This document shows, in pieces, positions 18,518-19,839 of a stretch of DNA of 64,000 nucleotides. The stretch covers positions 6,658 through 70,657 of the IMG/VR virus record IMGVR_UViG_3300014969_000018; one strand, written 5' to 3'. Position 1 is the stretch's first letter. Each line of letters starts with the position of its first letter. The translations under genes were made by a program, and so were the position numbers. The stretch comes from a virus (lineage: Duplodnaviria > Caudoviricetes). A model generated the notes under the pieces. That model saw only the letters and a program-made list of their open reading frames with translations, was not told the origin of the DNA and searched no databases.

Positions 18518-19839
18518 TATGCGCTAGACCGTTACGGGCTGCTTGGGGGGTAAGGCACGCTCTCCGCCAATGGGTCGCTTACGAGAGATGGCACGCTAAC
18601 ACTGATTGGGTTGCTCCATCGCGATGGCACGCTAATCCGGTACGGGTTGCTAGAGGCGAGTGGCACGCTGACCAACACTGGATTGCTTGCGTTGAGTGGC
18701 ACGCTGGTAACGCTTGGGTTGCTCTGACAGCGCGGCACGCTGCTTTGCCATGGGCTGCTCGTCCAGACTGGCACGCTACTCCGCATTGGACTGCTAACCA
18801 AAGATGGCACGCTTCAGTCAGATGGGTTGCTAACGCGGTTTGGCACGCTGTGCCGGTGCTGGGTTGCTCGACGGATGGGGCACGCTGTATTTCTTCGGAT
18901 TGCTAAATCATGATGGCACGCTCACCGAGGACGGGTTGCTCATTGGGACCGGCACGCTGCTGCTCCTTGGATTGCTGCTGATAAGCGGCACGCTGCATGC
19001 TAGCGGGTTGCTCGATTGAGTTGGCACGCTTGACCACGTTGGTGTGCTTCCGTCGTATGGCACGCTGCTCATGGATGGATTACTTGCCGTCGATGGCACG
19101 CTTCCACGTCCGGGGTTACTCGGCACATGTGGCACGCTGTAGCTAGGCGGATTACTCACTCTCTTTGACACGCTGACAGTTGACGGGTTGCTGATAGCCA
19201 TTGGCACGCTACCGCTTTGTGGATTGCTCCTGCCTAATGGCACGCTTCGCTTGGTCGGATCACTCAGCAAGGCTGGCACGCTTCCGTGAGATGGGTTGCT
19301 CGGTCTTTGCGGCACGCTCATCATTTGTGGATTTCTGCCGAGAAACGGCACGCTGCAGAGGTCTGGATTACTCATGTCGAATGGCACGCTGCTGTGCTTC
19401 GGGTTCCTTCGCTACGGAGGCACGCTAGACAACCAAGGTTTGCTCTCACTCATTGGCACGCTGTTGTTATACGGGATGCTAAGTCAATGTGGCTCGCTGT
19501 GCGGTGCTGGATTGCTTGAGCTTGAAGGCGCGCTAAGGCTACCGGGGTTACTTTCTGTGGACGGCACGCTGTCGTCACCGGGTTTGCTTATGAGGGATGG
19601 CGCGCTGTAGAAGCGGGGGTTGCTCTTCGAGGATGGCACGCTTCGTGAACGTGGATTACTAACGGTCAAGGGCACGCTGTCCTGCCTAGGATTACTTGAT
19701 AACTGCGGCACGCTCCTTCTACTGGGTTGCTCTCTTCGCGTGGCACGCTGTCGTGTTTCGGGTTGCTGTTTCATAATGGCGCGCTTGTCGTTGATGGGTT
19801 GCTATGGGAAGATGGCGCGCTTCTGGTTCAGGGATTACT
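18518..19839 (-). repeat. TIGR-like dual-repeat guide-RNA array: 37 units, 36-nt period
   Basis: On the plus strand GGCACGCT starts at 18518 (degenerate), 18554, 18590...18842, 18879...19707, 19742, 19778, 19814. It alternates with GG(G/A)TT(G/A)CT, and the two are separated by unique 10-nt segments whose last base is usually a pyrimidine. Sense strand: AGYAAYCCR-N9-AGCGTGCCR-N9. The array begins 4 nt after the stop of the Nop/IS110-like gene. Confidence 0.9.

Follow-up and report, generated by a model that had tools for sequence, protein, structure and literature searches.

The window analysed here, a stretch of 64,000 nucleotides from a record that is a 70.6-kb virus contig, contains a gene for a predicted nuclease-less Tas protein and, behind it on the same strand, a long TIGR array, with the large terminase and portal genes located downstream of the array. 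The features of the locus, all in window coordinates, are the following:

19844-20800, minus strand: tasA, encoding a predicted nuclease-less Tas protein of 318 aa (coiled coil and Nop/HhH RNA-binding domain)
18518-19857, minus strand: whole TIGR array, 37 units of 36 nt
19850-19857, minus strand: 5'-truncated edge repeat, with the 3' part (..GCC) kept, within the end of tasA
19832-19839, minus strand: first loop repeat, AGYAAYCC type (37 copies, the last at 18536-18543)
19814-19821, minus strand: first complete edge repeat, of the AGCGTGCC type, with the next base A completing box C (CCA)
18554-18561, minus strand: last of the 36 full edge repeats
19571-19705, minus strand: units 5-8, in place of which contigs of two soil RNA libraries have one different unit of 28 nt
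19247-19273, minus strand: unit 17, which a variant array in a soil RNA-library contig lacks along with one edge repeat
18959-18985, minus strand: unit 25, the sole unit of the window array kept in another lineage (contig L009, 2/18 differences)
18526-18534, minus strand: spacer B of unit 37
18518-18525, minus strand: 3'-truncated edge repeat, with the AGCG.. part kept
18496-18516, minus strand: hairpin of 6 bp without a U tract, just past the array and overlapping the ribosome-binding region of terL
16826-18490, minus strand: large terminase gene (Pfam Terminase_6C, 1.4e-10; tblastn matches to phage terminases)

The array (18518-19857) shows on the plus strand an alternation of GGRTTRCT (37 copies) and GGCACGCT (36 copies) in steps of 18 nt, and its periodicity, with a period of 36 nt, is far above chance expectation. 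The minus-strand forms of the two repeats, AGYAAYCC and AGCGTGCC, most often have an A or R after them; the resulting 9-nt repeats start with AG, finish with CCA or CCR and are separated by 9-nt spacers. The array was missed by Tandem Repeats Finder because its spacers all differ, and neither an Rfam family nor PADLOC matched it. Only two one-base slips are present: the normal interval between repeat cores is 10 nt, and it is reduced to 9 nt in unit 4 (19715-19723) and extended to 11 nt in unit 28 (18850-18860). The initial annotation had taken the stretch for a TIGR array, in agreement with the 36-nt period and the 37 plus 36 alternating repeats; the limits it had given (18544-19831, 36 units) enclose real repeats but fall short of the full extent, as the repeats at both ends are incomplete and counting them gives 18518-19857 and 37 units. 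Concerning the box motifs, box C is found as CCA after 24 of the 36 edge copies and as CCR after the loop in 27 of 34 cases, and box D is AG in both repeats and not UG, with the G that pairs with box C retained. In the edge type (AG-CGTG-CC) the core ends form a Watson-Crick pair, and in the loop type (AG-YAAY-CC) the core is A-rich and its ends are unpaired; in related arrays this pairing is seen at the core ends of 88-100% of edge-type and 0-12% of loop-type repeats. The array is very likely co-transcribed with tasA from the minus strand, and a consensus terminator scan called no terminator after it, the 18496-18516 hairpin included. Spacer A of the first unit (19840-19848) holds the tasA stop codon, and the truncated first edge sits within the tasA coding sequence; the first guide may be non-functional, or guide production may be coupled to the tasA transcript. 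Several long open reading frames across the array, at 18454-18906 (plus), 18908-19387 (minus), 19296-19610 (plus) and 19484-19774 (minus), are not genes, since they result from the 36-nt (12-codon) period and the stop-free repeats.

The tasA gene ends 4 nt upstream of the array on the same strand, and the first truncated edge overlaps its end. Over residues 105-313, its product matches the TaTasR structure 9MTY (phmmer E 5.6e-11) and SpTasH (E 3e-7), the match being limited to the coiled-coil/Nop part, with no room for HNH or RuvC; residues 1-105 are predicted to form a helical coiled coil with an acidic insertion. A Pfam search of the 318 aa gave no nuclease domain and a weak match to Transposase_20. 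The lack of an HNH or RuvC domain places the protein, as judged from its sequence, in the TasA subclass of nuclease-free Tas proteins. Relatives with 79, 66 and 63% identity are found in IMG/VR phages, and another with 35% in the Ralstonia phage RSL1. The gene immediately upstream of tasA (20821-21441, minus strand) carries an Acb2/Tad1 hairpin domain (Pfam 1e-07), the fold of phage sponges for the signal nucleotides of CBASS and Thoeris, and the guide system therefore adjoins a likely anti-defence gene.

The locus clearly falls under the dual-repeat TIGR-TasA definition of Faure et al. (2025; PMC12045711), and its array is unusually long. As in FpTasA and other members of that group (PMC12045711), a nuclease-less Tas with coiled coil and Nop domain lies beside the array, two 9-nt repeats alternate with 9-nt spacers in a 36-nt period, box C is CCA, both edges are truncated at the array ends, and the system is phage-borne. 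The differences are the 37 units instead of the usual 5-15 (PMC12045711), a box D of AG instead of the UG of TasR and dual-repeat TIGR-TasA, and the overlap of the first truncated edge with the end of tasA. TaTasR (PDB 9MTY) and SpTasH (PDB 9W04 and others) can be aligned with the window TasA by sequence over the Nop/coiled-coil part and share the guide architecture, the reading of opposite strands and the meeting of the spacer 3' ends at the centre of the site; however, they carry RuvC or HNH and cut DNA, whereas the window TasA has neither domain, and the sites on which they have been tested are contiguous (18 or 16 bp). Another parallel is provided by the PAM-dependent, non-cleaving RNA-guided DNA binders of mobile elements, which are likewise thought to interfere with competing elements but are unrelated proteins with single long spacers that read one strand. 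Finally, box C/D sRNPs and IS110 bridge RNAs also combine a Nop-type domain with box C/D-like motifs that flank two short guides; unlike TIGR, they guide RNA methylation or recombination, and both box C/D guides read RNA and not the two strands of one DNA site.

The identity of the guides depends on which repeat is the edge. The initial annotation had taken AGYAAYCC as the edge, and this assignment was overturned by five independent lines of evidence, among them the conserved units, the array ends, the published rule and the cassette polymorphisms. The comparison set was composed of the IMG/VR arrays with the same repeats (19 loci in 13 lineages; whole contigs, 654 kb), whose Tas proteins, where the gene was found, range from 79% down to 44% identity to the window TasA. 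Across the 13 lineages, 18 unit pairs with at most 4/18 differences (6 of them identical) are obtained when AGYAAYCC is the loop, and only 1 when it is the edge. For every spacer common to two lineages, the partner across AGYAAYCC has also been kept, with 0-3 differences, and the neighbour across AGCGTGCC is random-like (5-9 differences), the one exception being a tandem two-unit block. The array ends point in the same direction, as a box reduced to ..GCC lies 18 nt upstream of the first AGYAAYCC here, in most of the 13 lineages and in RSL1, and a box reduced to AGCG lies 18 nt downstream of the last one here and in most lineages; edge repeats truncated at the 5' and 3' sides of the array have been described previously (Faure et al., 2025; PMC12045711). 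According to the TIGRFinder rule, the edge is the repeat whose 4-nt core has complementary ends, which is true of CGTG and not of YAAY. In addition, the variant arrays show a one-unit deletion and a four-for-one swap, both bounded by AGCGTGCC. Thus, AGCGTGCC is the edge repeat and AGYAAYCC the loop, and the array therefore contains 37 guides, each centred on AGYAAYCC, and not 36 pairs. The eight 18-mers listed in the initial annotation were reproduced exactly, as units 1, 6, 7, 11, 14, 21, 23 and 26/36 of that reading, but they pair half-guides one spacer out of register, so each of them joins halves of two guides.

The relatives of the array also indicate how it changes. In the unit 17 variant, 36 nt are skipped and the 9-nt ambiguous joint is the edge repeat itself; in the other variant, the block of units 5-8 has been swapped exactly between the edge repeats 19563-19570 and 19707-19714. 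Phages that are 80-88% identical in the flanking genes have a minority of units in common, with the order locally rearranged, while some units are conserved, a part of them identically, across lineages that are 12-30% diverged elsewhere. Units are therefore exchanged and shuffled as cassettes at the edge repeats, and few are kept, some of them with one to four changes. In diverged copies of the same unit, most changes were seen at spacer positions 6 (7 of about 33) and 9 (6), in what is a small sample. Regarding persistence, the identical array was found in 17 DNA runs from rhizosphere, soil or roots, belonging to at least 14 studies and dated 2017-2025. Two soil metatranscriptome libraries, from different studies, yielded contigs that span parts of variant arrays (19159-19809), of tasA and of the start of terL; these contigs hint at transcription, with the reservation that DNA can occur in such libraries and that no 36-nt ends are shown.

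Once the register is fixed, two statistical signals can be observed inside the guides. Among the distinct units pooled from the arrays of the lineages (385-391), base 9 of spacer A is complementary to base 9 of spacer B in 148 of 385 (38%, expected 0.247; binomial p 1.8e-9; chi-square for independence 2.8e-9), and complementarity at the other 80 position pairs lies between 0.19 and 0.31, with 0.24 at base 9 in the register of the initial annotation. In three distant relatives with the repeats AGAAAMCC and AGCGAGCC, base-9 complementarity occurs in 19 of 53 units vs 13 of 53 in the other register. A local RNA helix was rejected as the cause of this pairing, given that the repeat-flanking positions A9-B1 and B9-A1 show nothing. 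The second signal was obtained with a codon-phase likelihood, in which the base frequencies at the codon positions of the phages' long open reading frames were used and true units were compared with shuffled partners. Codon-phase coherence appears only in the corrected register, with opposite strands and an offset of 2 modulo 3 (-1 or +2), where z reaches 3.6-3.9 and none of 3000 shuffles is as high; at offset 0 it is negative (z about -3), and same-strand models and the register of the initial annotation are flat (|z| < 1.4). The signal is maintained with a within-lineage null, upon removal of any lineage (z 3.2-4.1), with positions 1-8 only (z 2.8) and in units both with and without centre complementarity (z 2.4 without). 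The strand resembling spacer A is the sense strand in 57% of the cases (p 0.006), a weak bias that is not relied on.

These data show statistically, though indirectly, that each unit reads a single DNA site with one spacer per strand, in accordance with earlier biochemistry: TasR cleavage falls at the fifth spacer base and produces 3' overhangs of 8 nt (PMC12045711), from which it follows that the target is spacer A plus the reverse complement of spacer B, and the same spacer arrangement has been described for the SpTasH complex (PMC13421893). The opposite-strand formula with which the 18-mers had been built agrees with both the overhangs and the structure. Since in the published geometry the spacer 3' ends meet at the centre of the site, base-9 complementarity is most simply explained by a shared base pair, and it suggests that the two 3'-terminal spacer bases read one central base pair, giving a site of 17 bp. 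With complementarity at 38%, short of 100%, frequent mismatches at the terminal bases have to be assumed, or else an overlap in only part of the guides. The centre complementarity and the codon phase agree on the offset, which suggests that the guides match mostly protein-coding DNA. The site model derives from guide statistics alone, and within it a 2-bp gap and a 1-bp overlap have the same codon phase and are inseparable by the codon-phase test. Faure et al. (PMC12045711) found "no obvious covariation" between spacers A and B in published arrays, so the published dual-repeat arrays differ in this from the clade of the window, and no description of the shared centre or of the codon phase was found in the searched literature. 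The initial annotation had read plausible codons across the junctions of its 18-mers, an impression with no statistical support in that register (|z| < 1.2); its related proposal of foreign coding DNA as the target was a reasonable guess as far as coding is concerned, in view of the codon-phase signal of the corrected register, but the 18-mers themselves do not carry this signal.

Spacer composition provides a further indication. The four bases are about equally frequent in the spacers, both in the window (18536-19839) and in all related arrays, and the spacer G+C content (0.43-0.59; 0.525 here) is 7-12 points under that of the carrier phage genomes, the values for this phage being 52.5% vs 61.7%. 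This low G+C argues against G+C-rich host core genes as targets and is compatible with accessory or foreign genes, or with sites that are easily melted. Two other approaches were tried: a test of synonymous changes in 12 pairs of diverged homologous units lacked power and was skewed by masked codons, and a search for shared k-mers (tiling) between units returned homologous units only.

Direct searches for targets and for the host have been carried out at several levels. In the 70.6-kb genome, with two registers and two geometries, the best site has at least 3 mismatches, the same as shuffled pairings, so that the absence of a full match in the window, noticed previously, extends to the whole genome. 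About 390 pooled units were compared with the 654 kb of 13 related TIGR phages, and no exact match was found with gaps of 0-2; matches with 1 mismatch in these genomes are at chance, and no enrichment was seen up to 3 mismatches at any offset, an apparent excess in this search being due to duplicate contigs. In IMG/VR, unit 25 with gaps of 0-2 gave 1 match (at gap 1, in a contig of 36% G+C), the 17-mer of a unit common to two lineages gave 2 unrelated matches, both results being at chance level, and unit 14 of the window as a 17-mer gave 0. A metagenome scan with unit 25 returned 90 matches, of which the 81 examined were distributed as 11, 41 and 29 at gaps 0, 1 and 2; they are regarded as noise, given their unrelated contexts, G+C contents from 36 to 70% and repeated sampling of the same organisms, and no contig among them matched a second unit. 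Enrichment of hits in one register, which had been put forward as a way to identify the edge, was not observed: neither register exceeded the controls in the searches run. As for the host, the repeat pattern had 0 matches in 185,579 species genomes, so that neither a prophage copy nor a hint of the host came from it; a search for tRNA genes was negative, and the nearest clusters of the CTERM surface protein are viral or merely "Pseudomonadota".

A homologous system exists in a cultured phage. In Ralstonia phage RSL1, the product of ORF034, annotated as a "transposase", is a Tas homologue with 35% identity to the window TasA, and about 1.3 kb of unannotated DNA downstream of this gene holds an array of 37 units with the same two repeat types (NC_010811.2 14258-15585, equivalent to L150 5013-6340) and a truncated edge at its start. 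Base-9 complementarity is found in 17 of 37 units (p 0.0045), the top cell of the 9x9 matrix, and in 11 of 36 in the other register. The spacers have 43% G+C vs 58% in the genome, a gap of 15 points, and at this composition a match in the Ralstonia megaplasmid (67% G+C) would be unlikely; the 231-kb genome contains no target for its own 37 guides. RSL1 thus resembles the window locus in unit number, repeat types, truncated edge, base-9 complementarity, low-G+C spacers and absence of a self-target, and differs in being a 231-kb jumbo phage with a cultured host, in its far more degenerate repeats and in a terminator hairpin that separates gene and array. No link between RSL1 and TIGR-Tas was found in the searched literature.

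Several alternative explanations have been considered. That AGYAAYCC is the edge and AGCGTGCC the loop, with the 36 18-mers of the listed type as real target sites, is suggested by the fact that AGYAAYCC-type repeats stand at either end of the array when only full-length copies are considered, and that the 72 spacers then pair evenly; we regard it as exceedingly unlikely, because truncated AGCGTGCC-type boxes lie beyond both array ends, conserved cross-lineage units number 1 vs 18, neither centre covariation (0.24) nor codon-phase coherence is seen in this register, and the published edge criterion and the cassette polymorphisms point the opposite way. A different alternative accepts the corrected register and assumes contiguous 18-bp sites (offset 0), like those on which TaTasR is active, with the base-9 covariation reflecting a preference for a repeated base at the centre or a quirk of unit formation. 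This fits the facts that all biochemistry so far has been performed on contiguous sites, with gaps of 1-2 bp being tolerated, and that only about one fifth of the units are complementary beyond chance. On the other hand, codon phase is negative at offset 0 and positive at -1/+2, even in units without centre complementarity, and the period-3 autocorrelation of coding DNA would produce about 27% identity, not 38%, and would touch other position pairs; we consider contiguous sites unlikely, while giving them more weight than the other alternatives.

The guides might instead repress the phage's own genes, as part of a lytic programme, a role that recalls the repression of transcription by TasA proteins in reporter assays (preprint 10.64898/2026.09.09.750476) and the position of the tasA-array cassette among structural genes. 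Such self-targeting is hardly credible when the closest sites in the 70.6-kb genome, whatever the register or geometry, have at least 3 mismatches, the result being the same for shuffled guides, and when neither the 13 related genomes (up to 3 mismatches) nor RSL1 show any sign of it. It might also be argued that the spacers copy no target, the array being a decaying or randomly diversifying repeat and TasA having another role, as the near-uniform spacer composition, the mostly different units of phages that are 80-88% identical in flanking genes and the lack of any target found would allow. Nevertheless, units are conserved, some identically, across lineages diverged by 12-30% elsewhere, the identical array recurs in samples from 2017 to 2025 with repeats well kept over 37 units, and codon-phase coherence and centre covariation would be unexpected of random sequence, so that this explanation appears very unlikely.

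The explanation that we favour, and hold to be probable, is that the locus is a phage-encoded TIGR-TasA guide array whose 37 corrected guides specify sites of about 17 bp, mostly in protein-coding DNA, where binding would take place without cutting. For processing, binding and repression, the inference draws on what has been published for other TasA proteins. By analogy with those proteins, the array would be read on the minus strand as part of the tasA transcript, which would be cut within the AGCGTGCC(A) edge repeats to yield 36-nt tigRNAs, each expected to run from the 3' half of one edge through the 9-nt spacer A, AGYAAYCC(R) and the 9-nt spacer B to the 5' half of the following edge, the working spacer pair being the two that flank each AGYAAYCC. 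A dimer of the nuclease-less TasA would hold this guide; each spacer would pair with a different DNA strand, the 3' ends of A and B coming together at the centre of the site, and in this Tas clade both 3'-terminal spacer bases would read the same central base pair. The site of about 17 bp would then correspond to spacer A plus the reverse complement of spacer B minus its first base, often with mismatched end positions, and would lie mostly in protein-coding DNA outside this phage and its TIGR-bearing relatives. In the absence of a nuclease, the most likely effect of binding would be a block of transcription or of replication, either in a competing element or in host genes. The more specific proposal that the sites are 17 bp long, lie in coding genes and share a central base pair, and that in array evolution whole units are gained, lost and exchanged at the edges, is put forward tentatively, with chances slightly below even.

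What TIGR-Tas naturally targets, and which role it plays, is acknowledged to be open (Faure et al., 2025, PMC12045711; Xu et al., 2026, preprint), targets being unassignable because the guides are short and matches are mostly false. In this context, the present case cautions that wrong guides result when the register is deduced from the array ends that are visible, and it illustrates that the register can be set from comparative data alone. The shared central base pair and the codon phase narrow the expected targets and can be used as controls in large searches. If true, the 17-bp shared-centre rule would be the first sequence-derived rule for natural TIGR protospacers and a sharper search key for natural targets, and it would hint at an origin of the units in which both strands of a single short duplex are copied. 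RSL1, as a cultured jumbo phage with a homologous 37-guide array, offers a cultured test case. Finally, some of the related phages carry several arrays with the same repeats at distant places: in G002, the IMG/VR contig of L005/L010, three array regions are found on both strands, and in G003, the IMG/VR contig of L006, the array is in pieces between 76.6 and 83.2 kb.
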